DNA from: Rickettsiales bacterium
GTDB lineage: Bacteria > Pseudomonadota > Alphaproteobacteria > Rickettsiales > UBA8987
NCBI GenBank assembly: GCA_020630095.1
Contig: JAHDCD010000004.1
Coordinates: 13,580-77,579, forward strand
DNA: 64,000 nt
Direction of reading: 5' to 3'
Position numbers and translations under genes: made by a program. A model generated the notes under the pieces. It searched no databases and was not told the origin of the DNA. It saw only the letters and a program-made list of their open reading frames with translations. Shown here in pieces: positions 1,348 through 45,322 of this stretch; position 1 is the first letter of the stretch; every line of letters begins with the position of its first letter.

Positions 1348-1379
1348 ATTGTAGGGGCTAATGTTTAATAAATCGTTAA
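1348..1379 (-). promoter_or_regulatory. CtrA-type box (TTAA-cgattta-TTAAA) + N10 + TACAAT, 7 nt before the ATG at 1340
   Basis: The minus strand reads cTTAAcgatttaTTAAAcattagccccTACAATaaggctaATG. The geometry matches seven other loci in the window. Confidence 0.55.
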
Positions 1380-4300
1380 GCTTGAAGGGAAATTACTTCT
1401 AGGTTATCCCATCCGATAGAGTTTACCTTCTCAATTGAAGCAACAATTTCACGTGCGCCAGTTGCGGTAGTTGTATAAGGAATCTTTTCAATAAGCGTAT
1501 TACGACGGATAGAGAAACTATCTTGTAACGCCTGCTCACCTTCAGTTGTGTTGATAACAAGGTCAACTTTACCTTCCTTAATTGCATCTACAATATGCGG
1601 ACTACCTTCAAGCACTTTATTAATTTGAGCAGCTTTAATGCCGTTAGTATTTAAGTGCTTTGCCGTACCTTCAGTTGCGGTAATATTAAAGCCCATATTG
1701 GCGAATTTTTGTGCGATAGGTAGAATGTCTTCCTTATCCTTGTTGCGTACAGAAATAAATACATTACCTGAAAGTGGTAATTTATTCCCCGTACCAAGCT
1801 GCCCCTTGTAAAAGGCGATTTCAAAGTCGGCATCGTAACCCATAGCTTCGCCAGTAGATTTCATTTCTGGGCCAAGTACTACGTCAACATCCGCGAAACG
1901 GCTGAATGGGAATACAACTTCTTTTACCGCGAATAACTGCTTAGCTTTACCTTGAGTTAAAGCTTTGATATCTTTTAGCTTTTTGCCAGCCATAACTTTT
2001 GCGGCAATTTTAGCGACAGGCACGCCAGTTGCTTTTGCAACGAATGGCACTGTACGCGATGCGCGTGGGTTAACCTCTAACACGTAAATTGTACCTTCCT
2101 GAGAAACCGCGAATTGTACGTTCATTAAACCGATAATCCCAAGCTCTTTAGCCATTTGCGTAGCTTGAGTTTTAAGCTCATCAATTTTAGCATCCGAAAG
2201 TGAATATGGCGGTATAGAACAGGCTGAATCGCCAGAGTGAACACCAGCTTCTTCAATATGCTCCATTACACCTGCGATAAAAATATCATCACCATCAGAT
2301 ATAACATCAACGTCAACTTCTGTGGCTTTATTTAAGAATCTATCAAGTAATAGAGGACCATGTTCAAAACAGTTGGGGAATTGGATTAGGTATTTAGCAA
2401 AACCCTCTGTATTATCTACAATTGCCATTGCCTGACCGCCAAGTACAAATGACGGACGAACAACCACAGGGAAACCAATTTCTTCAATTTTAACTTTCGC
2501 TTCTTCTGGAGTATTAGCAATAGCGTTTTCAGGCTGTTTTAAATCTAACTTCTCTAGAAGCTTTTTAAACAAATCTCTATCTTCCGCGTCATCAATTACT
2601 TTGGCAGATGTACCAAGTAACGGGAAGTTATTTTCGTGTAATTTGTTAGCTAGTTTTAACGGAGTTTGCCCGCCGAACTGCATATTAACACCTTTTACCT
2701 TACCGGCAGTTTGCTCTTTATAGATAATTTCAGAAACATCTTCATAAGTAATAGGCTCGAAATATAGGCGGTCGGAAGTATCGTAATCAGTTGATACAGT
2801 TTCAGGGTTACAGTTAACCATTATGCTCTCGTAGCCGTCTTCCTTGGCAGCGAAAAGTGCGTGAACGCAAGCATAGTCAAATTCGATACCCTGCCCGATT
2901 CTATTAGGGCCAGAGCCTAGAACGATTATTTTCTCCTCATCAGAAACACCTGCTTCGCAGTCTGGTTCATTTACACCGTCACCAGCGTAAGTTGAATACA
3001 TATAAGGTGTAATTGCAGCGAACTCGCCTGCGCATGAATCTATGCGTTTGAATACTGGGCGAACATCTAGTGAGTGACGAAGTGCACGGATTTCATCTTC
3101 AGTTTTACCCGCAAGCTCTGCAAGGCGCGCATCCGAGAAGCCTTTTTTCTTAACCGCAAGCATGCCGAATTTATCTTCTGGAATGCCCTGCTCTTTAATA
3201 TCTAGCTCGTAAGAAACGATTTCTTCAATTTGGTCTAAAAACCATTGATCCCATTCCGTTAATTCTTGGATTTTCTTTAATGTATAACCGCGGCGCATAG
3301 CTTCGGCTATGTACATAATACGTTTTGGGGTACGTTTTGCCAGTTCCGCATCAAGGTCTGCTGTTGCTATTGCAGCTTTATCATTTAAGCCTGAAACACC
3401 AGTTTCAAGTGAGCGTAATGCTTTTTGTAAGCTTTCTGCAAAGTTTGAGCCGATAGCCATAACTTCACCAACGGATTTCATTGCAGATGTTAAAATAGGC
3501 TCAGCGCCGGCGAATTTTTCAAATGTGAAGCGTGGTATTTTAGTTACAACGTAATCAATTGAAGGCTCAAATGATGCTGGCGTACAGCCAGTACAGTCAT
3601 TTGTAATTTCATCTAGCGTATAGCCAATCGCTAGTTTTGCGGCAACTTTAGCTATCGGGTAACCTGTCGCTTTAGATGCAAGCGCGGATGAACGGCTTAC
3701 GCGTGGATTCATTTCAATAACGACCATTTTGCCATTTTCAGGATTAACGCCGAATTGTACGTTTGAACCACCAGTTTCAACACCGATTTCGCGCAGTACA
3801 GCAATAGATGCGTTACGCATGCGCTGATATTCTTTATCCGTTAATGTTAGCGCAGGGGCAACTGTTATAGAGTCCCCCGTATGTACACCCATAGGGTCTA
3901 CGTTTTCAATGGCGCAAATAATAATGCAGTTATCAGCTTTATCGCGGACAACTTCCATTTCATACTCCTTCCAGCCAAGAAGTGATTCATCAATAAGCAC
4001 TTGATTAGTTGGTGAAGCATCTAAGCCTGAAGCTACGATTGCTTTAAATTCTTCCATTGTGTTAGCAATACCACCACCTGTACCACCTAGGGTAAATGAT
4101 GGGCGGATAATTGCCGGCAAGCCTGCAGTTTTAATGAACTCTAGTGCGTCATCAATATTATCAACAACAGTATTAGCGGGCACGTTTAAGCCGATTTTTG
4201 CCATAGCCTCGTTGAAGCGGGCGCGGTTTTCAGCTTTATCTATAGAGTCTGGCTGAACACCGATAAGCGATACGTTATGTTTTTCTAAAATGCCAAGCTC

Positions 4301-4609
4301 GTGAAGTTCAAGTGCGCAGTTTAATGCCGTTTGACCACCCATTGTAGGCAGTAAAACATCCGGCTTTTCTTTAGCGATAATTTTTTCAACAAACTCTGGA
4401 GTGATAGGCTCAATATAAGTCGCGTCCGCCATGTTGGGGTCGGTCATAATTGTAGCAGGGTTGGAGTTTACCAGAATTACGCGATACCCTTCTTCCTTCA
4501 ATGCCTTACAAGCTTGAGCGCCGGAATAGTCAAATTCGCATGCTTGACCTATAATGATAGGGCCAGCGCCGATAATTAATATTGATTTTATATCTGTTCT
4601 TTTTGGCAT
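1376..4609 (-). CDS. carB: carbamoyl-phosphate synthase large subunit
   Basis: The ~1077 aa product has duplicated ATP-grasp halves and the [31 protein letters not shown]-terminus. The start was moved to the MPKRTD methionine at 4609; the track start at 4645 adds 12 unlikely residues. Confidence 0.97.
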
Positions 4610-4700
4610 AGTATTAGCAGATGAGCATATAAGAAGGTTAAGCATATTAGAAGCCCAACTTCTTATCTGCTTATATGCTTATTCCTCTTATATGCTAAAT
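4610..4700 (-). repeat. ~90 bp palindromic leader element directly upstream of the carB start; first 42 nt shared with the lipA leader
   Basis: The minus strand reads ATTTAGCATATAAGAGGAATAAGCATATAAGCAGATAAGAAGTtgggCTTCTAATATGCTTAACCTTCTTATATGCTcatctgctaatactATG. The two arms are inverted copies of each other. Confidence 0.7.
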
Positions 4701-4774
4701 TTAGGCAAAACTTTGAGAGTACTACAAAATGAAGGCAATTAATCAAGGGGAAAATTGGAGAATTATAAGATTTT

Positions 4775-5020: not shown

Positions 5021-5057
5021 GCCTTTAATATATAATATAAATCTATAAAAATCAAGG

Positions 5058-5623: not shown

Positions 5624-5652
5624 TTTGTTTGTGTTTGTGTTTGTGTTTGTGT
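5624..5652. repeat. hexanucleotide microsatellite (TTTGTG)n, about 4.5 units, starting 3 nt upstream of the dcd start codon
   Basis: Read directly as tttgTTTGTGTTTGTGTTTGTGTTTGTGtag. On the dcd strand this is (CACAAA)n sitting where an RBS would be. Confidence 0.9.
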
Positions 5653-6829: not shown

Positions 6830-7987
6830 ATGATTTACTTAGATTACAATGCAACCTGCCCTATATTGCCTGAAGTTAAACAGACTATGTTAAGTGCTAT
6901 GGATAGACCTTATAATGCATCTTCTGTGCATGCCTTGGGGCGCGAGGCGAAGAATATTATATCCAAAGCTAAAGATAATATTCGCGGTAAGCTTGGTAGT
7001 GAATCTGCTGAGATAATATTTACTGGAACATCTACTGAAGCATCTAACTTAGCGTTAAAAGGATTAGATAAAGTTAAAACCATTATAACTACCGAAGTTG
7101 AGCATAGCGCAGTACTTAATACTGTAAAATCATTTTATCATTGCGAGAAACAAAGTGACGAAGCAATCCAGAAATCTACCCAAGCGAATAAATCACTGGA
7201 TCGCTTCGCTAATGCTCGCGATGACAGGATATATATAATTCAAGTTGATTCAAATGGTATAACTAAACTAGATGAATTAGATAAAGCCTTGAGTAAGGCG
7301 GAAAGCCCTGCTTTGGTTAGCGTGCAATTAGCTAATAGTGAAACTGGAGTAATTCAGCCTATTAAAGAAGTAGTTAAAATTGCGCTTAAATATGGCGCGT
7401 ACATCCATTCTGATGCTACTGCGGCACTAGGTAAGGTTAATATAAACTTTGATGAGTTAGGCGTGGATATGATATCCGTAGCAGCGCATAAAATTGGTGG
7501 CCCACAAGGTGTTGGCGCACTTATCCATAAGAAGGGATTACATTTTAATGCGTTAATTCAAGGTGGCGGACAACAAGGTGGCTATAGAAGTGGCACAGAA
7601 AATATAGCTGGAATTGTTGGCTTTGCTAAAGCATGCGAGCTTATTGAAACTAAAGCATATAACAATATTTCTATATTGCGTGATGAGTTACAGTACACAT
7701 TAGAAACTAAGGGCTGGCAGGTATTTGGTAAAGAGTCTGAGCGCCTATGCAACACCTTGCTTGTTTCTGATGGTAAAACGCCCGCAGAAACCCAGCTTAT
7801 TAAAGCAGACTTAGCGGGCATTTGTATATCTGCAGGTTCGGCATGCTCAAGCGGTAAAGTTACTGAAAGTTATGTATTAAAGGCAATGGGAATAGATAAA
7901 ATAATAGCCGAAGGTGCTATTCGCCTTTCCTTAGGGGTTAATACTACAAAAAATGAAATTAAAACCTTTTTAACCAAGTTAACTTAA
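6830..7987 (+). CDS. cysteine desulfurase (NifS/IscS-type class V aminotransferase) carrying an in-frame palindromic-element insertion
   Basis: Contains the PLP-lysine context SVAAHKIGGPQGVGAL, the catalytic Cys loop SAGSACSSG and the N-terminus MIYLDYNATCP. Confidence 0.85.
   Translation: MIYLDYNATCPILPEVKQTMLSAMDRPYNASSVHALGREAKNIISKAKDNIRGKLGSESAEIIFTGTSTEASNLALKGLDKVKTIITTEVEHSAVLNTVKSFYHCEKQSDEAIQKSTQANKSLDRFANARDDRIYIIQVDSNGITKLDELDKALSKAESPALVSVQLANSETGVIQPIKEVVKIALKYGAYIHSDATAALGKVNINFDELGVDMISVAAHKIGGPQGVGALIHKKGLHFNALIQGGGQQGGYRSGTENIAGIVGFAKACELIETKAYNNISILRDELQYTLETKGWQVFGKESERLCNTLLVSDGKTPAETQLIKADLAGICISAGSACSSGKVTESYVLKAMGIDKIIAEGAIRLSLGVNTTKNEIKTFLTKLT
7139..7225. repeat. RPE-like palindromic element inserted in-frame in the cysteine desulfurase gene
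   Basis: CATTGCGAG..ACGAAGCAATCCAG...CTGGATCGCTTCG..CTCGCGATG has two nested inverted repeats with one mismatch each. It is translated as HCEKQSDEAIQKSTQANKSLDRFANARDDR. Confidence 0.75.
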
Positions 7988-8010
7988 TATTAACCTATCT
8001 GTTGTAATAT
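7979..8010 (+). promoter_or_regulatory. CtrA-type box TTAAC-N6-TTAAC + N10 + TAATAT, 7 nt before the ATG at 8018
   Basis: Reads gTTAACttaataTTAACctatctgttgTAATATttgaattATG. Confidence 0.55.
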
Positions 8011-8017
8011 TTGAATT

Positions 8018-8572
8018 ATGGCAAAGGATACTACAGATAAAAAAGGGTTCTTTATACGTTTATTTACAGCAATTGGGCTAGCTTCTGTGTTACCTTTTAT
8101 TGGAAAAAAAGATGAGGCGGGAATTGATGGCATTTTACAGCCTGATGGTAGCATTACTCATCCAAAAAGTGGAGAAGTAATTAGATTAAATAACTATCTA
8201 GAAAATTATTTTGGAGTTGAACCTGAAAGTAAAAAAGAAACACCCATTACTGAGGATCAGCCAGCATTACCTTTGGAAATGAAAGAAATCATTGAAGCTC
8301 GCCCTAGAGGACGAGGTGATATTGTACCAATCCACCCTAAACAAAAAACTGAACCTGACGCTGCACCTAGTTATTGGGATGAAAAAAATTGGAAAAAACC
8401 TGATGAAAATCCTGCTCCTGAAGAATTATCTCCACCACAAGAAGATGAGCAAAAGGAAGAAAGAAGAAGGCCCAGAGGAAGGGAACCACATGCGCTTGAA
8501 GCAGAATTTCAGATGGCTGAAGCTCCTCAAAGTGAAGCTAGCGCACAAGTAACTGAAAATGAGCTAAGTTAA
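8018..8572 (+). CDS. hypothetical protein with N-terminal TM helix and a Pro/Glu-rich acidic tail (184 aa)
   Basis: ORF with the conserved promoter architecture. The hydrophobic segment is FFIRLFTAIGLASVLPFIG. No known motif. Confidence 0.55.
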   Translation: MAKDTTDKKGFFIRLFTAIGLASVLPFIGKKDEAGIDGILQPDGSITHPKSGEVIRLNNYLENYFGVEPESKKETPITEDQPALPLEMKEIIEARPRGRGDIVPIHPKQKTEPDAAPSYWDEKNWKKPDENPAPEELSPPQEDEQKEERRRPRGREPHALEAEFQMAEAPQSEASAQVTENELS

Positions 8573-8577: not shown

Positions 8578-8609
8578 TTAACTTTAAATTAACCTTTTGA
8601 AGATAAAAT
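8578..8609 (+). promoter_or_regulatory. CtrA-type box TTAAC-N6-TTAAC + N10 + TAAAAT, 6 nt before the ATG at 8616
   Basis: Reads gTTAACtttaaaTTAACcttttgaagaTAAAATttaactATG. Confidence 0.55.
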
Positions 8610-8615
8610 TTAACT

Positions 8616-9197
8616 ATGAATAGTCTATTTAAATTTACCCTTGGTATTTCATCTTTAATCTTTTCCAGCTCATTAACCCCTTTAAGCGCGCAGGAAATAT
8701 TTAAAGATCCAAATGCCCCTATAGAGAGAAAAGAACGATTTTTTACTGAACTAGTACCTAAAAGATTAAGTGCAGAAAGCTCCCAAAAAGAAGGGGATCA
8801 AAGATGGGGAGAGCTTTTTGGTAAATTAGAGTGGGATAACGCTGAAGGAAAAAGAATACCAGCTGATGACGATAGCATAATTCCTCCATTAATGCCAGAA
8901 GAGCTACCTACTATGTCAGAAATATTACAACATGACCCCTCCTTAAAAAATGGCTTTGAGGGCTTAGGAGAAAGCGTTGAAGTTGACTTAAGCAGACCTG
9001 AATCGAATTATGAACCGGATGATTCTGTTAAAAAATCAAACTCTAACAAACCTAATGTTATAAGAGTATTTTCAAAAGAAGATTTTAAAGAAATATTAAA
9101 TAGCCCTAGCGCACCTTCGCAAAAGCATAAACCTCATAAACCAATTACAGTTGGGAGCGCTGATGTGCAATCAAAAGGTTCGGAACTTGGTGGTTAA
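8616..9197 (+). CDS. hypothetical secreted protein (signal-peptide-like N-terminus, 193 aa)
   Basis: MNSLFKFTLGISSLIFSSSLTPLSAQE looks like a Sec signal peptide. The gene has the conserved promoter architecture. Confidence 0.55.
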   Translation: MNSLFKFTLGISSLIFSSSLTPLSAQEIFKDPNAPIERKERFFTELVPKRLSAESSQKEGDQRWGELFGKLEWDNAEGKRIPADDDSIIPPLMPEELPTMSEILQHDPSLKNGFEGLGESVEVDLSRPESNYEPDDSVKKSNSNKPNVIRVFSKEDFKEILNSPSAPSQKHKPHKPITVGSADVQSKGSELGG

Positions 9198-10241: not shown

Positions 10242-10273
10242 TTAACTAAAGTTTAAGAACTGAATAATATAAT
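10242..10273 (+). promoter_or_regulatory. CtrA-type box TTAAC-N6-TTAAG + N10 + TATAAT, 6 nt before ATT at 10280
   Basis: Reads aTTAACtaaagtTTAAGaactgaataaTATAATtttataATT. The layout is the same as the two downstream paralogue promoters. Confidence 0.5.
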
Positions 10274-10279
10274 TTTATA

Positions 10280-10963
10280 ATTACTGATAATAATAAAAAT
10301 ATACTCGGGCATAATATACCACCAAGTAAAAACGATAAAGAGGCAAGAGAGCTTTGGCGCTTTGGGGTTTCTTATCTTATAAAATCTATTTTACCTGAGA
10401 AAAAGCCCACACAGGCGGTTATAGCAGAAGACCTCGGGATTCCTTTATCAAAATATAGGCACTTACTTAGAGGGTATGGCGATACACCACAATTATTAGA
10501 TAAATTATTAGATAACTTTAATGTACCAGACAATGAGAGGCTTGAATTTTACAATAACTGTAATGAACTGGGTATTGTTACCAGTCAAAGCCTCTATAAA
10601 CAAGGTGCCTCAAGCTTAGGAGATTGCTTAAAGAAGATTAGACTGAAAGCCGGTTTGACTCAAGAAGAGCTTAGCGATGCATTGGATGTCGAAAGAGTTT
10701 TTCATAGCCATGTTGAAAGTGGTTATGAAGTTTATGACGCAACAACAACTGGCAAGCTTTTAGATTTTTGTAACGCAAGTGAGCTAGATAGGACCTTTAC
10801 TGAACAGCTTAGATCTGGAGATGTTGGATTTCAAAGAAACTCAGGAAAAAAACACCTTCCTAGTGATGCACAAATTAAAGCCGTAGAAATAGGCGCTGCA
10901 ATTGTTGAATCAATAGAGTATTTAGCCAATGAGTTAGATGCCCTACCCTCTAAAGAAAGGTAG
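10280..10963 (+). CDS. short multi-HTH protein, third member of the tandem family; no canonical start codon (ATT at the conserved start position), possibly a pseudogene
   Basis: The frame is open from 10268. The first ATG/GTG/TTG in frame is the TTG at 10655 (track ORF 10655-10963). The upstream part encodes HTH-like KPTQAVIAEDLGIPLSKYRHLLRG and LKKIRLKAGLTQEELSDAL. Confidence 0.45.
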   Translation: MTDNNKNILGHNIPPSKNDKEARELWRFGVSYLIKSILPEKKPTQAVIAEDLGIPLSKYRHLLRGYGDTPQLLDKLLDNFNVPDNERLEFYNNCNELGIVTSQSLYKQGASSLGDCLKKIRLKAGLTQEELSDALDVERVFHSHVESGYEVYDATTTGKLLDFCNASELDRTFTEQLRSGDVGFQRNSGKKHLPSDAQIKAVEIGAAIVESIEYLANELDALPSKER

Positions 10964-10992: not shown

Positions 10993-11024
10993 TTAACCAA
11001 ATCTTAAGAAATATGCTTTAAAAT
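10993..11024 (+). promoter_or_regulatory. CtrA-type box TTAAC-N6-TTAAG + N10 + TAAAAT, 6 nt before the ATG at 11031
   Basis: Reads aTTAACcaaatcTTAAGaaatatgcttTAAAATacccatATG. It is nearly identical to 13214-13251. Confidence 0.6.
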
Positions 11025-11030
11025 ACCCAT

Positions 11031-13208
11031 ATGGGACAAGATACAACATACGGCGGCCTATCCTTTGAAGAATATACCAATGGTTATGGAAGGGATAGCG
11101 GTCGAAAAATAGGGGCTGCTGGATTACCATTTGAATTTTCTGTATCTGGCTTTTTAAATCACTGGCTAGATTTAGAAGAAACCTCTGCAAGTGAGTTTTA
11201 TGCAATTCATAAACTGTCTGACTTTGAGGTGGATTATTCAGATTTTGAAAAATTAATATCTCCACCATCAAGAGAGAATGGCAGTTATTCGCTAGGTGAT
11301 AATTTACATATATATCTACAATCTGCATTACCTAAAAGTATGAAAGAGCATTCTTGGGCTTTAAGATATTCATCTCAGAAAGAAATTGATGCGATAGGAG
11401 CAGAGATTGTAGAGGCAGATATTAGCATTTTTGAACAAATTACAAAGGCTGATCCAAGAACTATATTAGCCCCTTATATAAAGCCAGCTGAAAGAGTTAA
11501 TGCACAGAATTACCCTTCTGAATTTTTAACAAAATTATTAAAAACCTTAAGAAAAGCTAATGATTTACAGGGCTCTTTGGGAGGAAGCTTTCCATTTGAA
11601 GAGATTGAATTCTTCAGAAAGGTAGATGATTTCTATCAGTTTCTTACTAAAGGCACAATCCCTGAAAAAAAAATGCTAAGTCTACTTGAATCAACGTATG
11701 ATTTAACAGACTCAGATATCAACTTTATTTCAGATGCTCTTACGGAGGCTGAGACTCAAGGCTATCCGAAAGATTTCTTTTCAAAAGAAATCGACAAAAT
11801 TATAGATCAGGTAAAAAATCAAGAGCAAGGCGAGGTTTTACAACTTAGCGATTATGAATTAATGAATAAATTTGCTAGAATAGTTGATGCTCCTATAGAA
11901 TGTTTATACGGGCTAAGGCCCTTAACATACTCTGATAAAACAAGGCAAATTAGTGCTATATGCGAAAAAATATCATCTTTTGCAGGTGAAGAGTTAGCGA
12001 ACTTAGCTGAAGAGCATTTTCAAAGTATTGAAGGCATTGATATTGAAAGACTCATTGAAATTAAAGAGGAATCTGGAGTTACAGGTAGAAAGCTACTTGG
12101 TTATGCGCTTAGTTTAATTCGGTTGTCTGAAGGGATGACTCAGGCTGAACTTGGCGATAAGGCTGACTTAAGGCCGCAGAAAGTTTCCTCTATGGAAATA
12201 CATACTAGAACCAGTATAAAAAATAGCTCAACTAGAGCGCAAAAACCCTCTCAGATAGAAGCATATCTTGACGGGTGTAATACTGATAAAAAGTTTAGAG
12301 GCATAATAGAAAGAATATGTAAAAAATATGATATTGATACAGTTAAAAACTTAACTGATAGAATTTATAAAACAGATAATGTGAATGAAGCCGTATATTT
12401 ACTTACAAAATTATATGAAACTTCACTGACAGCTATTGATAGGAAAGCCCGTAAACTAGACCCTGATTGTATTACATATGTTAAAATAAAAAACAAAAAA
12501 ACTCAATTAAAGCCTAAAGAAGTTAGACTTACATTAGGTATATTAGAAGTTAAAGCTGAACATAGGCAGCATTTTGAGGGGCTTATAAACCTTACTAATT
12601 TACTTGAGGCAGAAACTGAACTTGGCAGCGCTTTGAGAATAGTTAGAGAAAGTTACGACTTAACTACCACTGATATTAAAAATCGCCTAGGTGTTACTAG
12701 ACAGGCGGTCAATAATGCTGAAATAAAAGGCTGTAAGGCATCTACTGCAATGAATTATCTAAACGCTTGTGGGGCTACTAGAGATGTACGCTATATGGTT
12801 GCCGTTACAAGTGAGCATGCCGAATTTATACCAGAATTACTATATGAGGTAGTTAACAGGGTCTCAATTGACATAATGGATACTGATAATAACTTATCTG
12901 CTAGAGCTATAGTGGCTGATAATATGGGTATAAGCGTAAAAGAATTTAATAGCATACTATCCTACGAAACAAAACCCAATAAAACTGAAATTAGGGAGTT
13001 GTGCAAGTTAACTAGAGATAATTTAGCCAATTACCTTACCGATAAAGATTCAACCTATTTAGAAAATTCAATTGATAAAACTCGTACAAATAAAATAACA
13101 AAATCTGGAGCGTATAAGGAGCGCACCATTAGGCACCCTTCTGTAAATACTAAAGCGGATCATTGGCGGACTCTTAGCGGTCCTACTAAAATGTCTAAAA
13201 TTACTTAA
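11031..13208 (+). CDS. large multi-HTH (XRE-like repeat) protein, paralogue A (725 aa)
   Basis: At least three HTH-like modules: GRKLLGYALSLIRLSEGMTQAELG, LRIVRESYDLTTTDIKNRLGVTRQAVNNAE and ARAIVADNMGISVKEFNSIL. It shares blocks with 13252-15450. Confidence 0.7.
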   Translation: MGQDTTYGGLSFEEYTNGYGRDSGRKIGAAGLPFEFSVSGFLNHWLDLEETSASEFYAIHKLSDFEVDYSDFEKLISPPSRENGSYSLGDNLHIYLQSALPKSMKEHSWALRYSSQKEIDAIGAEIVEADISIFEQITKADPRTILAPYIKPAERVNAQNYPSEFLTKLLKTLRKANDLQGSLGGSFPFEEIEFFRKVDDFYQFLTKGTIPEKKMLSLLESTYDLTDSDINFISDALTEAETQGYPKDFFSKEIDKIIDQVKNQEQGEVLQLSDYELMNKFARIVDAPIECLYGLRPLTYSDKTRQISAICEKISSFAGEELANLAEEHFQSIEGIDIERLIEIKEESGVTGRKLLGYALSLIRLSEGMTQAELGDKADLRPQKVSSMEIHTRTSIKNSSTRAQKPSQIEAYLDGCNTDKKFRGIIERICKKYDIDTVKNLTDRIYKTDNVNEAVYLLTKLYETSLTAIDRKARKLDPDCITYVKIKNKKTQLKPKEVRLTLGILEVKAEHRQHFEGLINLTNLLEAETELGSALRIVRESYDLTTTDIKNRLGVTRQAVNNAEIKGCKASTAMNYLNACGATRDVRYMVAVTSEHAEFIPELLYEVVNRVSIDIMDTDNNLSARAIVADNMGISVKEFNSILSYETKPNKTEIRELCKLTRDNLANYLTDKDSTYLENSIDKTRTNKITKSGAYKERTIRHPSVNTKADHWRTLSGPTKMSKIT

Positions 13209-13213: not shown

Positions 13214-13245
13214 TTAACCAAACCTTAAGAAATATGCTTTAAAAT
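13214..13245 (+). promoter_or_regulatory. CtrA-type box TTAAC-N6-TTAAG + N10 + TAAAAT, 6 nt before the ATG at 13252
   Basis: Reads aTTAACcaaaccTTAAGaaatatgcttTAAAATacccatATG. Confidence 0.6.
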
Positions 13246-13251
13246 ACCCAT

Positions 13252-15450
13252 ATGGGACACGGGCCTAAATATGGAGGATTATCATTTGATGATTATACCA
13301 ATGGTTATGGAAGGGATAGCGGTCGAAAAATAGGGGCTGCTGGATTACCATTTGAATTTTCTGTATCTGGCTTTTTAAAATATTGGCTTGAACAAGAAGA
13401 AATATCCGTAAAAGATTTCTATACGGGGCATAAATTATCTAACTTTGGGGTTGATTATCAAAGTTTTAAAAGTTTAGTTTATCCCCCCTCAGCAGATAAA
13501 GGTGAATTTGCACTAGGCGAAAAGTTGCGAGTATATATACAGTCTATTTTACCTAAAAAGATGGCAAATTACGTTTGGGTTTTAAGACACTCTGCTTATA
13601 ATGAAAATAGCTCAGGTATGGCACAGGTGGTTGAGGCTAAAATAGAAATATTAGACTCCATTGTAAAAAAAGATCCTAAAGATTTAAAAGCTCCAAACTT
13701 AAAATCTGCAAAAAGAATCTCTACTAAAAATTACCCATCAGAGTTTTTATCAAAATTATTGGAAGCCTTAAGAAAGGCTAATCATATGCAAGGCTCAATA
13801 GGTGATATTTTTCCATTTGAGGAAGTTGAGTTTTATAGAAAAATAGATGATTTATATCAATTCTTAACTCAAGGGTCAATATCAGCCGATCAAATGCTAG
13901 ATTTTCTTGAAGCTGACCATACACTTTTAGATTCTGATATATTATTTATATCTAAAGCTTTAGTTGAAGCTGAAAAGCAAGGCTATCCAACAGATTTCTT
14001 TAGCAAGTCTATCGATGTGGTAATAGAGCGTGAAAAGAGTAAAGAGTGCGGTGGTACAGCTAAGCAGTATAGTGATTATGAATTAATGAGTAAATTTGCA
14101 AAGCTAGTAAACTGCCCATTAGAAAGCCTTTATGGGTTAAAGCCCCTTACTCAAGTTAGAATCACTGAACAAATTAACCATATTTGTGAAAGAATAGCAA
14201 CTTTTGCCGACCCCAAATTAGCCGTTTTGGCAAAATCACATTTTGAATCAATAGAAGGTATTGATATTCCTCGCTTAGTTGAAATTAAAGAGGAATCTGG
14301 AGTTACAGGTAGAAAGCTTCTTGGCTATGCGTTGAGCTTGATAAGATTATCAGAGGGGGTGAGTCAAACGGATGTTAGTGCAAAGATGGGAGTAAGTCAA
14401 AGAGCTGTTAGTGCCATGGAGTACTTTGAAAGCTTTAGGGTTAGTGGTGTTCATAGAAAAAATCAAAAACCGTCAGAAATAGAAAATTACTTAGATGCGT
14501 GTGATGCTGATAAAAGTGCTAGGAAAACCATTGATAGAATTTGCAAAAAATATGACATCGATACAGTACAAAAGCTAGAAGGCAATTTTAATGCCTCTAA
14601 AACAACTTTAGAAGCCATTGTTAATTTAATAAAATTACATGAAGTTCCTTTTAAAGTTCTGGGAAGGGAAATTAAACAAAAAGGATTAAAGTGTGAGGCT
14701 TCAGTTGAATTTTTAAAAAAAAAATCTCAACCACTGACTGAGTCTGATACAAAGATAATAATGGACACTCTTGGTGCAACTGCAGAAGAAAGAGAAATAG
14801 TCGAGGGTGTAATTCAAGAAAATAGCATGACAGCCTTACTTCAAAATGCAACTCATAGCGGTGAGGCACTAAAGATAGTGCGAGAAGGACTTGATTTAAC
14901 CGGTGAACAACTTGCTAAATTATGTGGCATTTCTAGGCGAACTATACAAAACCAAGAAGCTACTCCAGAAGTTAGCTCTATAAATATAATTAAGAGACTT
15001 AATGTATGCGAAGTTTCTCCAGAAGTTAGATATTATGTAGCCTTAGCAAGCTCTAGAGTTGAGTTACTACCTGAAATACTTTATGAGGTAGTTAACAGGG
15101 TCTCAATTGACATAATGGATACTGATAATAACTTATCTGCTAGAGCTATAGTGGCTGATAATATGGGTATAAGCGTAAAAGAATTTAATAGCATACTATC
15201 CTACGAAACAAAACCCAATAAAACTGAAATTAGGGAGTTGTGCAATCTTGTAAAAGAGTCTTTATCTGCTCATTTAACTGAAAGAGAAGTTGTATTTATA
15301 GATTCTTCTTTAGACGCTCTATACATAGATACTTTAAAGAAAGATGGCACGAGAAGAGAAAGAAAGATATCCATTCCCTCACCAGCTGCTAAAGCGGATC
15401 ATTGGGAAAACTTATCATGCCCTGTAAATATTAATTATTTGGGTGAATAA
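13252..15450 (+). CDS. large multi-HTH (XRE-like repeat) protein, paralogue B (732 aa)
   Basis: Collinear with paralogue A and carrying nucleotide-identical blocks. HTH-like modules include LIRLSEGVSQTDVSAKMGVSQRAVSAME and LKIVREGLDLTGEQLAKLCGISRRTIQNQE. Confidence 0.7.
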   Translation: MGHGPKYGGLSFDDYTNGYGRDSGRKIGAAGLPFEFSVSGFLKYWLEQEEISVKDFYTGHKLSNFGVDYQSFKSLVYPPSADKGEFALGEKLRVYIQSILPKKMANYVWVLRHSAYNENSSGMAQVVEAKIEILDSIVKKDPKDLKAPNLKSAKRISTKNYPSEFLSKLLEALRKANHMQGSIGDIFPFEEVEFYRKIDDLYQFLTQGSISADQMLDFLEADHTLLDSDILFISKALVEAEKQGYPTDFFSKSIDVVIEREKSKECGGTAKQYSDYELMSKFAKLVNCPLESLYGLKPLTQVRITEQINHICERIATFADPKLAVLAKSHFESIEGIDIPRLVEIKEESGVTGRKLLGYALSLIRLSEGVSQTDVSAKMGVSQRAVSAMEYFESFRVSGVHRKNQKPSEIENYLDACDADKSARKTIDRICKKYDIDTVQKLEGNFNASKTTLEAIVNLIKLHEVPFKVLGREIKQKGLKCEASVEFLKKKSQPLTESDTKIIMDTLGATAEEREIVEGVIQENSMTALLQNATHSGEALKIVREGLDLTGEQLAKLCGISRRTIQNQEATPEVSSINIIKRLNVCEVSPEVRYYVALASSRVELLPEILYEVVNRVSIDIMDTDNNLSARAIVADNMGISVKEFNSILSYETKPNKTEIRELCNLVKESLSAHLTEREVVFIDSSLDALYIDTLKKDGTRRERKISIPSPAAKADHWENLSCPVNINYLGE

Positions 15451-23364: not shown

Positions 23365-23964
23365 ATGCTAGGTAAGCGTTTAATAAAAGTGGCTATGATT
23401 GCCATGTTGTCAATTTCTTTGAGTTCGTGTTATTTAATCACGACCTCTAAACCCTCAAACATAGATCATATATGTACGATATTTAAGGAGCGTCCGCATT
23501 GGCAACGCGCAGTATTTAAGGCATCTAATCGCTGGAATGTGCCTGTGCCGATGATAATGTCTATCATTTATCAAGAAAGTTCGTTTAGGCGCTACGCACA
23601 GCCTACTCAATATTTATTGCTTGGTAGTATTCCTATGCTTGGCTCGTCTGGCGCGCTAGGCTTTTCTCAGGCGATTGGTATAACGTGGAAGGAATATGTT
23701 TCTGAAACTTCAAATGACTTTGCAATGCGTACATCTTTTGATGATTCAGTAGATTTCATTGGGTGGTACGTTGATAAATCTGCTAGGCTAATAGATATTG
23801 CACGTACTGATGCGTTTGGTCATTACCTTGCTTACCACGAAGGACGTACAGGCTATAAGCGTAAAACTTATAATTCAAAGTCTAAGAAATGGCTGTTAGG
23901 CGCAGCTAAAAAAGTGCGCAACAGAACTGCAAACTATAAAAAACAATTATTGGATTGTTATTAA
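23365..23964 (+). CDS. lipoprotein with SLT/transglycosylase-like motif
   Basis: The signal peptide has a lipobox (LSLSSC). SIIYQESSFRRYA resembles the SLT catalytic ES motif. Confidence 0.5.
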   Translation: MLGKRLIKVAMIAMLSISLSSCYLITTSKPSNIDHICTIFKERPHWQRAVFKASNRWNVPVPMIMSIIYQESSFRRYAQPTQYLLLGSIPMLGSSGALGFSQAIGITWKEYVSETSNDFAMRTSFDDSVDFIGWYVDKSARLIDIARTDAFGHYLAYHEGRTGYKRKTYNSKSKKWLLGAAKKVRNRTANYKKQLLDCY

Positions 23965-23992
23965 CTTTCTATTAACCTTATTAGACTAGAAT
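23961..23992 (+). promoter_or_regulatory. CtrA-type box TTAAC-N6-TTAAC + N10 + TAGAAT, 9 nt before the ATG at 24002
   Basis: Reads TTAACtttctaTTAACcttattagacTAGAATcataaatatATG. Confidence 0.55.
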
Positions 23993-24001
23993 CATAAATA
24001 T

Positions 24002-24973
24002 ATGATCTTAGATAATAAATTGTTACATAAGTTATCATCATCGCTTCAAATTTTAACATCTATCTTTGGTTTTAAAGATTACCCTAACTTTAAACATTTA
24101 TTAGATTTTTCTAGAGAGCCTATTAATAATACAAGATCATTAGTAGCATTTATGAGGGTTTTATCCAGTGAGCTTGATGATAAAATAGATACACAGCCAC
24201 CTGAGGTAATATCTAATTTAGGTACGGCTAAATTAGGGTGTTATGAAGAGTGTGAGTTTCTAGAGTCTTTATTAGATGAAGACTCTAGAGTTAAATTGTA
24301 CGGATTATCAAAAAACGATATATTATCTAAAGAGGCTATAAGAGGATTCTCAAATTTATTGTCTGCTCTTGTTGTAGAGCAATCCGACTTGCAATTAATT
24401 GAATCTCCTACCCCTTCGGATAGAAAGGCTTTAATTTCAATCCATCATGATATATCTATTGCCTGCCTAGCTTTCACCCTGCAAATAGTTAATCCAGTTA
24501 AAATAACCGAAGAGACAAAGCTTGACATGGGTTTTATTAAAGAAAACTACAGAAACGTAGCTCTTCTTGGTAAGAATATGCAGGTTATCGATGATTTACA
24601 TGATTTTATAATTGATCTGTATGAAGAGTCTACTACAGGAGTTACAAAGCAAAACTCTGCCTTAGTAAATGCATACCTAAAATGCGGAGAGGATGAGGAT
24701 CAAATGTCTCAATTAAAAGAAAAAATTAATGCTACCGCAGAAACCTTTAAAAGAGAAGGTCATATAGATTTCAATAAGCTGCCAAGTAAATTACAGGATG
24801 CCTATAATAGTACATTGGGTAATTTAAGAGAAGATATCAATAAGATGCCAGTAGCATATAGACTTATTATCTCACCTATTTTAAAGGATCTTGAGAGAGG
24901 CCTTTTAGCAAACAATAAGAACTCATCATTTATTAATGGAGTAGCGGTTTCGGTTGCAAACTCTATAACTTAA
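24002..24973 (+). CDS. hypothetical protein (323 aa) with two DDxxD motifs about 138 residues apart (isoprenoid-synthase-like?)
   Basis: LSSELDDKID spans residues 59-63, and GKNMQVIDDLHDF (residues 197-201) resembles the G..FQ..DD..D second Asp-rich motif of trans-prenyl synthases. Confidence 0.5.
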   Translation: MILDNKLLHKLSSSLQILTSIFGFKDYPNFKHLLDFSREPINNTRSLVAFMRVLSSELDDKIDTQPPEVISNLGTAKLGCYEECEFLESLLDEDSRVKLYGLSKNDILSKEAIRGFSNLLSALVVEQSDLQLIESPTPSDRKALISIHHDISIACLAFTLQIVNPVKITEETKLDMGFIKENYRNVALLGKNMQVIDDLHDFIIDLYEESTTGVTKQNSALVNAYLKCGEDEDQMSQLKEKINATAETFKREGHIDFNKLPSKLQDAYNSTLGNLREDINKMPVAYRLIISPILKDLERGLLANNKNSSFINGVAVSVANSIT

Positions 24974-25996: not shown

Positions 25997-26028
25997 TTAA
26001 CTTTATATTAACACCAAGCTTATATTAT
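25997..26028 (+). promoter_or_regulatory. CtrA-type box TTAAC-N6-TTAAC + N10 + TATTAT, 7 nt before the ATG at 26036
   Basis: Reads gTTAACtttataTTAACaccaagcttaTATTATatagctaATG. Confidence 0.55.
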
Positions 26029-26035
26029 ATAGCTA

Positions 26036-26392
26036 ATGGCTAATATTAAAAATAACTATCCCAGCTTTTATAACTTGGTTGAAGCTATTTTATTTAGTTC
26101 TTATCAAGAAGGCGATGAAGAACTTCAAGGATCTGGTGAGGTTGTACAGTTTATTGAAAACTACTGGAGTCTTAATCATGTATATTATCATGAGCCGTTA
26201 AAGAATATTAGAGAATCATGGGAAAAACCATTTAATAGTGATTCTATACCTATTGAAATAAATGTTGAAAGCTGGCTAAAACTAGTTGCATTCCCAACTT
26301 TGTTTTTAAATGGTGAATTAAGTGAATTTGATGATCCTGATAATGATATTAACATCTCGATAGCACTGCTAGAAGCTAGCAGTTTTTTTTAA
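26036..26392 (+). CDS. hypothetical protein, upstream part of a gene split at a T8A7 tract
   Basis: The 118-codon ORF ends in ...agtTTTTTTTTAAAAAAAgtt. The -1 frame stays open to 27105. Confidence 0.5.
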   Translation: MANIKNNYPSFYNLVEAILFSSYQEGDEELQGSGEVVQFIENYWSLNHVYYHEPLKNIRESWEKPFNSDSIPIEINVESWLKLVAFPTLFLNGELSEFDDPDNDINISIALLEASSFF

Positions 26393-28939: not shown

Positions 28940-28983
28940 TTTTACCCTTTTCTACCTTTTGGGCTTTTACCCTATTAAATTTG

Positions 28984-29460: not shown

Positions 29461-29520
29461 AATAATTTTTCTTATTTTAGCGCCTTCCGACTATATAGGC
29501 TGATTGTAATATTAGTCAAT

Positions 29521-29592
29521 TGTCATCCCCGCGAAGGCTGGGATCTTATAAAACAGACCTATCAAAAGATTTCCGCCTTCGCGGGAATGACA
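29521..29592. repeat. second copy of the ~70 bp TGTCAT...ATGACA palindromic element (inverted relative to 5671-5739)
   Basis: Reads tgtcatccccgcgaaggctgggatc...gatttccgccttcgcgggaatgaca. It lies in the divergent greA / 29615 intergenic region. Confidence 0.8.
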
Positions 29593-29614
29593 AGAGGTAG
29601 GCTTTATATAAAAA

Positions 29615-29995: not shown

Positions 29996-30010
29996 TTTTT
30001 TCTGAGATTT

Positions 30011-31522
30011 TTGGGATCTCATGAAAATTCTATATTTGAGAAAATGGACTTTAATTTACTTTTAAAAGGCTTGGTAAAAAAGGATTTTCCTACGTTTATG
30101 AGGAAGTGCTTTTCTACCGTTAACCCAGGGATTAGGTATCAGCATAATTGGCATTTAGATTTAATTGCCGAATATTTAGATGCCATAGATAAGGGGCAGA
30201 TTAAGCGCCTGATAATTAATATTCCACCACGTTATTTGAAATCATTCACTTGCAATGTGACCTACCCTGCTTGGGTGCTAGCGAATAATCCTACAAAGCG
30301 AGTTATATCTGTTTCGTATAGCCAAGCTCTTAGCTTAAAACATTCTATTGATTCGCGCGCGCTAGTTGAAAGTAAATGGTTTAAGCAATGTTTTAAAGAT
30401 TGTGCGCTGTTGGCGGATCAGAATGAAAAACATAAGTTTATGACCGAACAGCGCGGCTTCCGCTTTGCGACATCTGTTGGTGGCACGCTTACCGGCGAAG
30501 GTGGAGATTTAATTATTATAGATGACCCGCAGAACCCGATTAACATCCATAATCATGCGTATCGTGAGCATAGTATGGAATGGTTTTCCACTGTGCTTTC
30601 CAGCCGTTTAGATGATAAGAAAAACGGCGCAATGTTACTTGTTATGCAACGTTTGCATGAGGAGGATTTAACAGGAAAACTACTTAAACGCGGTGGCTGG
30701 GAGCATTTATCTATCTCCGCTCTGAATGAAAATGAAATTACTTATTATAGTTTTAAACAAATAAAAGCAAAAGAGTCGAATAAAGAATCTGTTATAGCTA
30801 TAACAGATTTTATTGATAATAATCTATTTAATTCAATAAGATCTGAATATTTAAGAAAGCCTAATTCTCCTTTACATTTTACACGTGAAGGATTTGATGA
30901 GTTGGATCAAATAAAGGCCGATTTGGGTGATCATGCATTTGCCGCGCAATATTTACAAAATCCTGCCCCCGCTAAAGATGGTATGGTTAGGCGCGATTGG
31001 CTATGTTATATATCTGAACCCTCTGAAGCGCCTGAGCAGATAATTTATTCATGGGATACGGCAATTAAAACTGCATCGCATAATGATTATACAGTTTGCA
31101 CGCGCTGGAAGACTTATAAGAATTTCTATTTCTTGGATAATTTATATCGCGGTAAATTGGAATACCCTGAACTGCTTAATTTAATTGATGAATTTAGTGC
31201 AGATGCTGATGTGGTATTGCTAGAGGATAAAGCCTCTGGGCAGTCTTTAATTCAAGACTTACGGAAGAATAGTAATCATCCTGTAATTGCCATTACCCCA
31301 CATAAAGATAAATTAACGCGCTTTGCGGCAACAACTCCGCTATTTGAGGCGAGTAAAGTAAAGATTAATCAGGATAGAGATTGGCGCATAGATTTAGAGC
31401 GTGAATTGCTAACATTTCCGAACTCAAAACACGATGACCAAGTAGATTCAATTAGCCAGTTTTTAAACTATATGAAAAATAGAAAGATAGAAATTTCTAA
31501 GCCCAACTTACGGAGGTTTTAA
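30011..31522 (+). CDS. phage terminase large subunit-like protein (orphan)
   Basis: Contains a Walker A-like IINIPPRYLKS, a Walker B DLIIIDDPQNP, and C-terminal RNaseH-like nuclease Asp motifs (YSWDTA, KHDDQVDS). The start may be the TTG at 30011 or the ATG at 30044. Confidence 0.8.
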   Translation: MGSHENSIFEKMDFNLLLKGLVKKDFPTFMRKCFSTVNPGIRYQHNWHLDLIAEYLDAIDKGQIKRLIINIPPRYLKSFTCNVTYPAWVLANNPTKRVISVSYSQALSLKHSIDSRALVESKWFKQCFKDCALLADQNEKHKFMTEQRGFRFATSVGGTLTGEGGDLIIIDDPQNPINIHNHAYREHSMEWFSTVLSSRLDDKKNGAMLLVMQRLHEEDLTGKLLKRGGWEHLSISALNENEITYYSFKQIKAKESNKESVIAITDFIDNNLFNSIRSEYLRKPNSPLHFTREGFDELDQIKADLGDHAFAAQYLQNPAPAKDGMVRRDWLCYISEPSEAPEQIIYSWDTAIKTASHNDYTVCTRWKTYKNFYFLDNLYRGKLEYPELLNLIDEFSADADVVLLEDKASGQSLIQDLRKNSNHPVIAITPHKDKLTRFAATTPLFEASKVKINQDRDWRIDLERELLTFPNSKHDDQVDSISQFLNYMKNRKIEISKPNLRRF

Positions 31523-32244
31523 ATTCCCTTATCTATTGCATCTACATGCAGAGAATAATCTTCAATTATATATTCAATATCTCCACCTTGTTGGATAATT
31601 AGCTTTTCTTTTATCCCAACATTAAACAGGATATTACCTTTTACTGGCAACAACTCTTTTATGATCAAAGCCCCTATAACACTATTGTCACTTTCTAAAT
31701 ATCGCCCCATATATTCTGGAGTCATACAAAAAGCTTCAAGCTCCTCTACTTCTTGTATTTCTGATAGAATTCTATCCGTTGCAATTTCTGCACCATCTAA
31801 ATCTGCAATGGAATAAAGCTCTTTATTTTGACATGTATTAGCAACCGCTTCTTTTAAAATATTACTATACTGCTCCAATGTCCCCATGAATACACCACCT
31901 TCTAAAAAACAACCTTCTGCCCTATGTTTATCAATATCTTTATCACCAATAATTAACTGATTAAAGGTTGGATCTACTATCATTAAATCAAGATTCCCTG
32001 TTTTATTATCTTTTACTACTGTTGCAATATATACATGACCATCTGCATTAACTCTAGCACATGAAATATTCATTCTGGCAAAATGATTAGCATACATAAT
32101 TGAGTAAGGGCCACATGCTAAATATAAATCTTTCCCACAACCTTTATCTTGTGTAAAACTTTTCACCCTAAATTTTGAATAATCACCAAGGCGACGCTCT
32201 TCCCTTTCCTGCTTGATAAGCGCTATGTAGAGTATCAAATTCAA
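31519..32244 (-). CDS. hypothetical protein, paralogue 2 of a tandem pair with a conserved Cys...His...Asp pattern
   Basis: LACGPYSIMYANHF...ADGHVYIATVV...LMIVDPTFNQLI aligns with the upstream paralogue. Confidence 0.55.
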   Translation of the reverse strand: MNLILYIALIKQEREERRLGDYSKFRVKSFTQDKGCGKDLYLACGPYSIMYANHFARMNISCARVNADGHVYIATVVKDNKTGNLDLMIVDPTFNQLIIGDKDIDKHRAEGCFLEGGVFMGTLEQYSNILKEAVANTCQNKELYSIADLDGAEIATDRILSEIQEVEELEAFCMTPEYMGRYLESDNSVIGALIIKELLPVKGNILFNVGIKEKLIIQQGGDIEYIIEDYSLHVDAIDKGI

Positions 32245-32944
32245 TTTGAGAATTTGCTGTTAACATTTCTTTTATAGCTAGCTTTGTATCTTCACTTCGA
32301 AATTCACCTCTAACATCAACGACCTTGTGTATGCCTGCTATTCTATTTAAGGCTATTTCATCTTTTTCTGTTAATGCTGACTCAAAAAAGGAATTGCTTA
32401 AAACTGGCTCTTCATATAAATCTATATGCTCAGCTACCAATGTTGTATCTAGTTTTCCTTTTTCTGAAGACCTTCCCGTACTGGAAGAAAAGTCTTCATA
32501 TATAGCTCTGTTTCTTGGATCTTTGGAGTTTAACAATGCTTCGATTAATAAATCTGCATATTGATCATAAGAGCCTAAATACAAACCATTCTTATTATAT
32601 GAATCTCCAGCATTTTTAGAATCTTCTGCGTTAAGAACAATTTGACCAAAGGTTGGGTCTAAAACTACAATTCCTGAATCTAATGTTGGTATAAGGATAA
32701 ACTGATGACCTTCGCTTCTAACAATTATGTTATCTATTCCTTTATCATCTAAGAATTTTGAATATGAGTTAGTATATCTTTCACATGCTTTAGAAAGTGG
32801 TGTTCTATCTTCTGAAAGCTTATCTAATTTTCTAACCCATAGCTCCACCTCTTCACCATTAATTTCCATCTTGTGAGGTAATGATTCTCCAGGAAATATA
32901 AATACCATAGAGATGATATCAGATTTTTTAGGTAAAAGTCTCAC
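32183..32944 (-). CDS. hypothetical protein, paralogue 1 of the tandem pair (GTG start)
   Basis: SKACERYTNSYSKF...SEGHQFILIPT...IVVLDPTFGQIV...LGSYDQYADLLIEAL aligns with paralogue 2. Confidence 0.55.
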   Translation of the reverse strand: MRLLPKKSDIISMVFIFPGESLPHKMEINGEEVELWVRKLDKLSEDRTPLSKACERYTNSYSKFLDDKGIDNIIVRSEGHQFILIPTLDSGIVVLDPTFGQIVLNAEDSKNAGDSYNKNGLYLGSYDQYADLLIEALLNSKDPRNRAIYEDFSSSTGRSSEKGKLDTTLVAEHIDLYEEPVLSNSFFESALTEKDEIALNRIAGIHKVVDVRGEFRSEDTKLAIKEMLTANSQIEFDTLHSAYQAGKGRASPW

Positions 32945-32950
32945 AATACT

Positions 32951-32982
32951 ATTAACTCATAAAAAAGTTTATTTTCTCTTAA
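32951..32982 (-). promoter_or_regulatory. degenerate CtrA-type box (TTAAG-N6-TAAAC) + N10 + GTTAAT, 6 nt before the GTG at 32944
   Basis: The minus strand reads TTAAGagaaaaTAAACttttttatgaGTTAATagtattGTG. The geometry is the same but there is one half-site mismatch and a weak -10. Confidence 0.3.
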
Positions 32983-45321: not shown

Positions 45322-45322
45322 A

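Follow-up and report, generated by a model that had tools for sequence, protein, structure and literature searches.

A rigid box-and-hexamer promoter module, probably of CtrA type, in front of eight non-housekeeping genes of an uncultured alphaproteobacterium

A 64,000-nucleotide stretch of alphaproteobacterial DNA (contig JAHDCD010000004.1; hereafter the window) carries, in front of several scattered genes, a TTAA-N7-TTAA box that is followed at a constant distance by a −10-like hexamer and, a few nucleotides further on, by a start codon. Does this recurrent arrangement mark one set of co-regulated genes and, if so, which regulator reads the box? The initial annotation of this DNA, made from the sequence alone, had proposed a nine-site regulon with leaderless, possibly CtrA-dependent promoters, and all nine sequences were found where it had placed them. 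Eight of these sites score 24–33 bits against a position weight matrix (PWM) of the module and are retained here. The ninth, a 'degenerate' site at 32967–32982 on the minus strand with a score of −6 bits, a GTTAAT hexamer and a GTG start, is indistinguishable from chance and was rejected. The eight retained sites are real and highly non-random, and they constitute a co-regulation signature.

Occurrence and geometry of the module

The eight promoter modules, each listed with its box, its −10 hexamer, the spacing from hexamer to start, the start codon and the PWM score, are as follows.

Module 1, 1338–1379, minus strand: box 1379–1364 TTAACGATTTATTAAA; −10 TACAAT 1353–1348; 7 nt; ATG 1340; 29.8 bits.
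Module 2, 7979–8020, plus strand: box 7979–7994 TTAACTTAATATTAAC; −10 TAATAT 8005–8010; 7 nt; ATG 8018; 32.9 bits.
Module 3, 8578–8618, plus strand: box 8578–8593 TTAACTTTAAATTAAC; −10 TAAAAT 8604–8609; 6 nt; ATG 8616; 32.2 bits.
Module 4, 10242–10282, plus strand: box 10242–10257 TTAACTAAAGTTTAAG; −10 TATAAT 10268–10273; 6 nt; ATT 10280; 26.8 bits.
Module 5, 10993–11033, plus strand: box 10993–11008 TTAACCAAATCTTAAG; −10 TAAAAT 11019–11024; 6 nt; ATG 11031; 29.0 bits.
Module 6, 13214–13254, plus strand: box 13214–13229, in a paralogous copy of module 5 that differs from it by one base; −10 TAAAAT 13240–13245; 6 nt; ATG 13252; 24.0 bits.
Module 7, 23961–24004, plus strand: box 23961–23976 TTAACTTTCTATTAAC; −10 TAGAAT 23987–23992; 9 nt; ATG 24002; 31.4 bits.
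Module 8, 25997–26038, plus strand, divergent from sspB: box 25997–26012 TTAACTTTATATTAAC; −10 TATTAT 26023–26028; 7 nt; ATG 26036; 32.6 bits.

As the initial annotation had expected, the bare repeat arises several times by chance: TTAA-N7-TTAA occurs 16 times in the window, against 9.7 ± 2.7 in shuffled sequence, a mild excess. The composite pattern TTAA-N7-TTAA-N11-TAnnnT occurs 9 times against 0.45 ± 0.67 expected, a count that none of 100 shuffles reaches, and 8 of the 9 matches are sites that had been claimed; the remaining match, at 7959, is an artefact that overlaps the site at 7979. When an ATG is also required 5–9 nt past the hexamer, 7 matches are observed against 0.03 expected (at most 1 per shuffle in 100 Markov shuffles).

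Two further analyses singled out the same motif. An unbiased search of all 4-mer/gap/4-mer dyads (about 33,000) covered the 60-nt upstream regions of 59 genes, one paralogue having been left out; TAAC-N6-TTAA ranked first (8 against 0.41; P = 1.4e-8, or about 5e-4 after correction). The PWM and enrichment check that had been suggested with the original proposal was run within the window. Because the promoters at 10993 and 13214 are near-identical paralogues, the eight sites amount to about seven independent ones, and the matrix was trained on 7 independent sites. Its scores are bimodal, the eight sites lying at 24–33 bits and the next best match in the 128 kb of both strands at 11 bits; null maxima were 8–19 bits. 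In the rest of the window, weaker matches and half-sites occur no more often than chance predicts, and half-site-only promoters are not enriched. Within the window the modules were found solely upstream of poorly conserved, non-housekeeping genes, so that the exclusive association claimed at the outset holds for the eight sites. Judged by their sequences, the eight are one cis-regulatory class with an invariant geometry.

In that geometry, a 16-nt box (TTAAC-N6-TTAA-s) is followed by exactly 10 nt, a TAnnAT-like hexamer, 6–9 nt and the start codon. Aligned across the sites, box position 5 is C in 8/8, position 16 is C in four, G in three and A in one, and the base preceding the second TTAA is never G. 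These bases indicate that the half-sites form a direct repeat (TTAAC twice, with an 11-bp period) and not an inverted one. Apart from modules 5 and 6, the aligned sites resemble one another at the motif positions alone and not in their spacers or flanks, and they are therefore not copies of one promoter.

Direct reading of the alignment revealed no TTGACA-like hexamer 16–18 nt upstream of the −10 hexamer in any of the eight sites. Nor is there an extended −10 (TGn) in any of the eight. The distal TTAAC lies 21 nt and the proximal TTAAC 10 nt from the −10 hexamer, distances that misfit a −35, so that neither half-site is usable as one. With no usable −35 or extended −10, these promoters should need an activator, and the reading that the box stands in for the −35, as a class II activator site, is well supported by the sequence. 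A generic sigma-70 scan performed at chance level (58 against 54 and 67 against 69) and touched two sites, each through alternative hexamers (10253, TTAAGA-17-TATAAT; 25997, TTAACT-18-TATATT). Ordinary sigma-70 promoters were accordingly rejected as an explanation, since the scan is at chance and leaves the sites unexplained.

Several modules are embedded in the end of the preceding gene. In module 1 the carB stop codon (1378–1376) doubles as the TAA of the first half-site, and in module 7 the stop codon of the SLT transglycosylase gene that precedes it (23962–23964) does the same; in module 2 the stop of the upstream aminotransferase gene (7985–7987) lies inside the box at 7979–7994. The overlap of box and stop codon shows how small an intergenic space can suffice for a full regulated expression unit.

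The box genes and their start codons

The genes that follow the eight modules, numbered as the modules are, encode the following products.

Gene 1, 477–1340, minus strand: 287 aa, acidic, isoelectric point (pI) 4.2; no Pfam match.
Gene 2, 8018–8572, plus strand: 184 aa, acidic and Pro/Glu-rich, with an N-terminal hydrophobic segment; no Pfam match.
Gene 3, 8616–9197, plus strand: 193 aa, with an N-terminus resembling a Sec-type signal peptide from Met1; no Pfam match.
Gene 4, 10280–10963, plus strand: open frame with an Xre-type helix-turn-helix (HTH) domain and no canonical start before TTG 10655.
Gene 5, 11031–13208, plus strand: 725 aa, with several Xre-type HTH domains.
Gene 6, 13252–15450, plus strand: 732 aa, a multi-HTH paralogue of gene 5.
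Gene 7, 24002–24973, plus strand: 323 aa, all-alpha, with DDxxD and DDxxDxxxDxxxE motifs.
Gene 8, 26036–26392, plus strand: 118 aa, very acidic, pI 4.1; no Pfam match.

All eight products are acidic (pI 4.1–5.8) and hydrophilic, and the GC fraction of their genes is 0.31–0.39, against 0.36–0.43 for the neighbours. Searches of the eight proteins against Pfam returned nothing beyond the Xre-type HTH domains of the products of 10280, 11031 and 13252. The products of 11031 and 477–1340 yielded no homologues besides self-matches, and a metagenome scan with the 13252 protein gave no match. A 47-aa 'cluster mate' (P0008), considered as a comparative relative, proved to be unrelated sequence. The original description of these genes as orphans is thus mostly right but fails for gene 7, and nothing was found in support of its further suggestion that they are effector-like, which is speculation. 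Gene 8 ends in a terminator-like hairpin and T-run (26365–26383), which makes it a self-contained one-gene unit of about 400 bp.

Genes 5 and 6 are tandem paralogues in which blocks of 100% DNA identity (around 11077–11166 and 12829–13008) alternate with regions of 40–60% identity, a mosaic that points to ongoing gene conversion. Their several Xre-type HTH domains per chain of about 730 aa are an unusual architecture. The conservation of the two promoters was considered as evidence of selection and set aside, as it is confounded by the gene-conversion patches. In gene 4, the codon at the canonical distance from the −10 hexamer is ATT, and no in-frame ATG, GTG or TTG occurs for 375 nt, until 10655; the public annotation of the locus consists of 10655–10963 alone (102 aa), in which the HTH domain is truncated. 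Gene 4 is probably either a recently decayed paralogue whose promoter has stayed intact or a gene that initiates at ATT.

Gene 7 belongs to a wider family. A full HMMER search with its product found 36 remote homologues with 22–33% identity, which share its DDxxD and DDxxDxxxDxxxE motifs and a size of about 330 aa, and for which Pfam reported no significant family. A structure model of the 24002 protein (predicted local distance difference test score, pLDDT, 86) has its best PDB matches mainly among polyprenyl synthases and terpene cyclases, with weak support (E from 0.05 up), and the modelled fold weakly resembles a class I isoprenoid synthase. On other contigs the homologues sit near sspB, as 24002 does. 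No box was found upstream of them in three other contigs (L086, L087 and L088), and the box at 24002 is thus a lineage-specific addition to an older gene.

By exact-sequence look-up, the start codons on which the geometry depends agree with the public annotation in every confirmed box gene except 10280 (7/8). Those of 8616, 11031 and 13252 are sound, given the signal-peptide-like N-terminus at Met1 and the conservation of the paralogues from Met1. At the expected position there is an ATG in 7/8 sites and an ATT at site 10242. A leaderless geometry is one in which a TAnnnT hexamer lies 6–8 nt before the ATG without a Shine–Dalgarno (SD) sequence. In the window, a −10 hexamer lies 5–9 nt before the start in 8/8 box genes, compared with 9/52 other genes, the latter being chance level. 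The 6–9 nt between hexamer and start leave no room for a ribosome-binding site. The box-gene messenger RNAs (mRNAs) are predicted to be leaderless or near-leaderless, with a 5′ untranslated region of 0–3 nt if RNA polymerase uses these hexamers.

The absence of an SD sequence had also been cited in favour of leaderless expression. The observation is true of the box genes but is not distinctive: SD-like tetramers precede 8/52 non-box genes and 9/60 genes overall, and as they are rare generally, the argument carries no weight. Translation initiation in this organism seems, from these counts, to be largely SD-independent.

The source genome and the rest of the window

To which organism does the module belong? 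The window has a GC content of about 36% and, by Pfam, contains the housekeeping genes carB, dcd, holB, a class-V aminotransferase gene, nadA, gyrB, lipA and dsbD, together with mraY, a trpD-like gene, an SLT transglycosylase gene, grx, sspB, metG, greA and argS. The best matches of GyrB are exclusively from Alphaproteobacteria, some of them labelled 'Rickettsiales bacterium' metagenome-assembled genomes, and its identity does not exceed 61% among species representatives or 68% across 5.8 billion proteins. The GTA_TIM and Rcc01698 tail genes in the window also point to an alphaproteobacterial origin. The window DNA is alphaproteobacterial. As the GyrB identities are low and all alphaproteobacterial, the source is, on this sequence evidence, a deep-branching, low-GC alphaproteobacterium without a sequenced close relative. 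Identical DNA is carried by Logan run SRR14415275 (a 962-bp contig).

Control sequences from elsewhere were examined for the same module. Across 80 alphaproteobacterial gyrB loci (1.55 Mb, mostly of high GC) there was no composite match. In 10 low-GC alphaproteobacterial loci (about 205 kb), which include the four nearest GyrB relatives (65–67% identity, 10-kb flanks), there were 2, the number expected by chance, and neither had the leaderless geometry; the four nearest relatives have neither synteny nor the motif in common with the window. A metagenome scan with the strict pattern TTAACTTWNWATTAAC-N10-TAnnnT returned at least 120 matches, single per locus, and among the 120 matches listed an ATG lies at 5–9 nt in 11 (9%), again at chance level. 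One locus with five composite matches (L090) was discarded as AT-rich low-complexity sequence. With these outside controls at chance level, the start-coupled module is characteristic of this genome rather than of AT-rich sequence at large.

Isolated TTAA-N7-TTAA boxes do occur in distant relatives, at L083 7281 (in the dnaA–dnaN spacer), L083 18043 (minus strand) and L086 8809 (minus strand). Two of these have a −10 hexamer at 10 nt, but a leader of about 34 nt. They may be ordinary CtrA sites of those genomes.

The rest of the window holds an island beside a transfer RNA (tRNA) gene and a tail module resembling that of a gene transfer agent (GTA).

36498–36573: tRNA-Lys, the sole match in an Rfam scan of the window.
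37225–39885: MmeI-type restriction-modification enzyme, in the island after tRNA-Lys.
41704–43626: DEAD/ResIII helicase, in the same island.
43630–44778: T5orf172/MUG113 protein, in the same island, which also has a small HTH protein.
46735–63985, minus strand: GTA/phage-like tail module, with lysozyme, DUF2793, a GTA_TIM/Rcc01698_C host-attachment protein, tape measure and tail tube.

The MmeI/helicase island downstream of tRNA-Lys (36498–45610) contains no box promoters and probably represents a defence island that has become integrated. The GTA-like tail cluster begins past the end of the window. The module is interrupted by an HTH and Fic/DOC gene pair in the opposite orientation (54128–55166, plus strand), and a terminase-like gene (30011–31522) lies apart from it. 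The divergent genes dcd and holB are 48 bp apart, and the gap is filled by a perfect hexanucleotide microsatellite, (TGTTTG) × 4.5, at 5626–5652, which could be a slippage-prone element of their shared promoter region.

The regulator that reads the box

Which protein, then, binds the box? An 11-bp direct repeat suits a head-to-tail winged-helix dimer and the host is alphaproteobacterial, which makes the cell-cycle regulator CtrA the most economical candidate; on the sequence evidence it is our best inference for the activator, one that we hold with moderate confidence. CtrA is near-universal in Alphaproteobacteria and a known binder of TTAA-N7-TTAA (PMC9437464; PMC9791040), and its motif is reported to be conserved and functional throughout the class (PMC9437464). 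Two forms of the motif have been published, TTAA-N7-TTAAC and TTAACCAT (PMC9791040). In the window, TTAA-N7-TTAA is present in 8/8 sites, the full TTAA-N7-TTAAC in 4/8, and TTAACCAA, which echoes the TTAACCAT half-site variant of Caulobacter, in 2/8 (modules 5 and 6).

The CtrA promoters of Caulobacter crescentus (such as ctrA P2, fliQ and ccrM) have the same core repeat and 11-bp period as the window sites, and their box overlaps and replaces the −35, as the box is predicted to do here. If transcription starts at the A of the start codon, the 5′ base of the box lies at −38 in the sites with 6-nt spacing, compared with positions near −35 for full CtrA motifs in activated Caulobacter promoters and −39 at ctrA P2 (PMC4287350); in at least one leaderless Caulobacter gene the CtrA motif lies at −32 (PMC4287350). 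The window sites, which are known from sequence alone, differ from those of Caulobacter in that the distal half-site is always TTAAC whereas the proximal one ends in C, G or A, in the fixed 10 nt to the −10 hexamer with the start codon 6–9 nt further on at every site, and in their targets, which are lineage-specific and not cell-cycle, flagellar or pilus genes. In Ehrlichia chaffeensis, CtrA has been kept in a reduced, low-GC, intracellular relative and activates stage-specific genes through TTAA-N7-TTAAC, but its reported sites lie far upstream, for example at −181 to −166 from the gst start codon, and not in a fixed leaderless module (PMC9791040). The leaderless-mRNA promoters of Caulobacter, Mycobacterium and Deinococcus resemble the window sites in their hexamer–ATG geometry without an SD sequence; there, however, they are a broad class with ordinary promoters, whereas here the geometry is tied to one activator box (8/8 against 9/52).

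In the mechanism that we propose, the identity of the activator, activation as opposed to repression, the transcription start sites and the biological role are inferred. A dimer of an OmpR/PhoB-family winged-helix response regulator, most likely phosphorylated CtrA, would bind the TTAAC-N6-TTAA(C/G) direct repeat head-to-tail. Occupying about −38 to −23, the box would replace the missing −35 and recruit RNA polymerase to a good −10 (TAnnAT) 10 nt downstream, and the promoters would accordingly be activator-dependent (class II) and of sigma-70 type. Initiation 6–8 nt past the hexamer would coincide with the A of the ATG or lie no more than 3 nt from it, and translation would proceed without an SD sequence. 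The box genes would thus make up a single co-regulated set whose products are fast-evolving, acidic and not of housekeeping type, each gene having its own compact promoter wedged into the 30–45 bp behind a housekeeping gene or overlapping its stop codon.

Several observations weigh against this assignment to CtrA or against the leaderless promoters that it implies. Among the scanned open reading frames of at least 80 aa, which make up most of the window, there is no ctrA, cckA, chpT or other response-regulator gene, and the window holds no canonical CtrA target (flagellar, pili, ccrM or ftsZ) that could serve as a positive control. The full 9-mer TTAA-N7-TTAAC is matched by only 4/8 sites, and the invariant C on the distal half-site lies outside the textbook CtrA consensus. 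The TTAA-N7-TTAA core is common to PmrA/BasR boxes as well (PMC3973317), so that the box alone names no protein. Eight sites in 26 kb amount to a much higher density than that in Caulobacter, for whose whole genome 52 full-motif promoters have been reported. There are no orthologous promoters for a conservation test, and the paralogue pair is confounded by gene conversion. Site 10242 precedes an ATT, with which a leaderless mRNA should be poorly translated. Finally, a terminator/promoter scan found no terminators separating upstream genes from box genes; as SD-less initiation is also general in this genome, read-through with internal initiation is possible.

Could a different regulator of the same family act through the same promoter logic? 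If an OmpR/PhoB-family regulator of PmrA/QseB type were at work, the box genes would be a regulon dedicated to host interaction or to secretion substrates, comparable to the Dot/Icm effector genes that PmrA controls in Legionella and Coxiella. In PmrA regulons, both the enterobacterial PmrA/BasR regulon and the Legionella/Coxiella 'ceg' genes, tandem TTAA half-sites lie 11 bp apart and are bound head-to-tail in OmpR-family fashion, and the TTAA-N7-TTAA core recurs in the enterobacterial PmrA box, CTTAAG-N5-xTTAAT (PMC3973317). The Legionella element, a regulon signature in its own right, immediately precedes the −10 hexamer in many genes that are scattered and evolve fast. PmrA there directly activates about 40 scattered effector genes, and the element has been used for effector prediction (PMC6989116; PMC2701608). 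The box genes are likewise scattered, lineage-specific, acidic and of lower GC than their neighbours, and the sites lie more densely than a CtrA regulon would lead one to expect. The Legionella consensus is reportedly cTTAATatT-N2-cTTAATatT. Those systems are gammaproteobacterial, however, and their half-sites are YTTAAK or TTAAT as against TTAAC here: the TTAA of the first half-site is followed by C in 8/8 sites (by G or T in PmrA boxes) and preceded by C in 1/8. These flanks suit CtrA better than they suit PmrA. Moreover, the host belongs to the class in which the near-universal CtrA binds this very core (PMC9437464; PMC9791040), and the scanned window open reading frames contain no pmrAB, no type IV secretion genes and no recognisable effector domains. 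We therefore regard a PmrA-type regulator as unlikely.

The box might instead be an operator of the multi-HTH Xre-family proteins themselves (10280, 11031 and 13252), which would regulate their own genes and the remaining five as well. HTH proteins are encoded behind three of the eight box promoters, several HTH domains per chain could in principle read a direct repeat, and these proteins are as lineage-specific as the expansion of the motif. Xre-type HTH proteins, however, normally bind inverted repeats as dimers and repress, whereas this repeat is direct (TTAAC twice) and is placed where an activator must replace the −35. We know of no precedent for multi-HTH Xre proteins acting as such activators, and one of the three HTH genes looks decayed. 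An operator of this kind is very unlikely.

That no dedicated regulator exists, and that the TTAAC repeat is a −35-like or UP-like element read by RNA polymerase with a housekeeping or alternative sigma factor, or a set of copies of one ancestral promoter, is highly improbable: TTAACT does match TTGACA at 4/6 positions, the sites at 10253 and 25997 can be read as weak −35/−10 pairs and modules 5 and 6 are true duplicates, but the 21-nt and 10-nt half-site distances misfit the 16–18-nt span of sigma regions 4 and 2, half-site-only promoters are not enriched and the flanks of the other modules are dissimilar.

CtrA thus stays the preferred activator, and the sequences most likely represent a known kind of element, a response-regulator-dependent class II promoter of CtrA type, in a new lineage and in an unusually rigid, dense and compact form. 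Because elements of this kind are well known, the finding extends what has been described and is not surprising. Should the module be the signature of a CtrA-type regulon, a single short pattern would pick out, in an uncultured, deeply branching alphaproteobacterium, co-regulated lineage-specific genes that homology cannot annotate, and it would also provide a clean example from nature in which activator-dependent promoters are firmly coupled to leaderless translation. More tentatively, a single response regulator, either a co-opted CtrA or a dedicated paralogue, might be the master switch of a large, rapidly evolving, lineage-specific gene set, each gene having a 40-bp 'plug-in' cassette (box, −10 and leaderless ATG) that can be placed against any housekeeping stop codon, much as PmrA governs the effector regulon of Legionella and Coxiella, of which this would be the alphaproteobacterial equivalent. 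If this were true, the motif could list host-interaction or developmental-stage genes of the organism from sequence alone.

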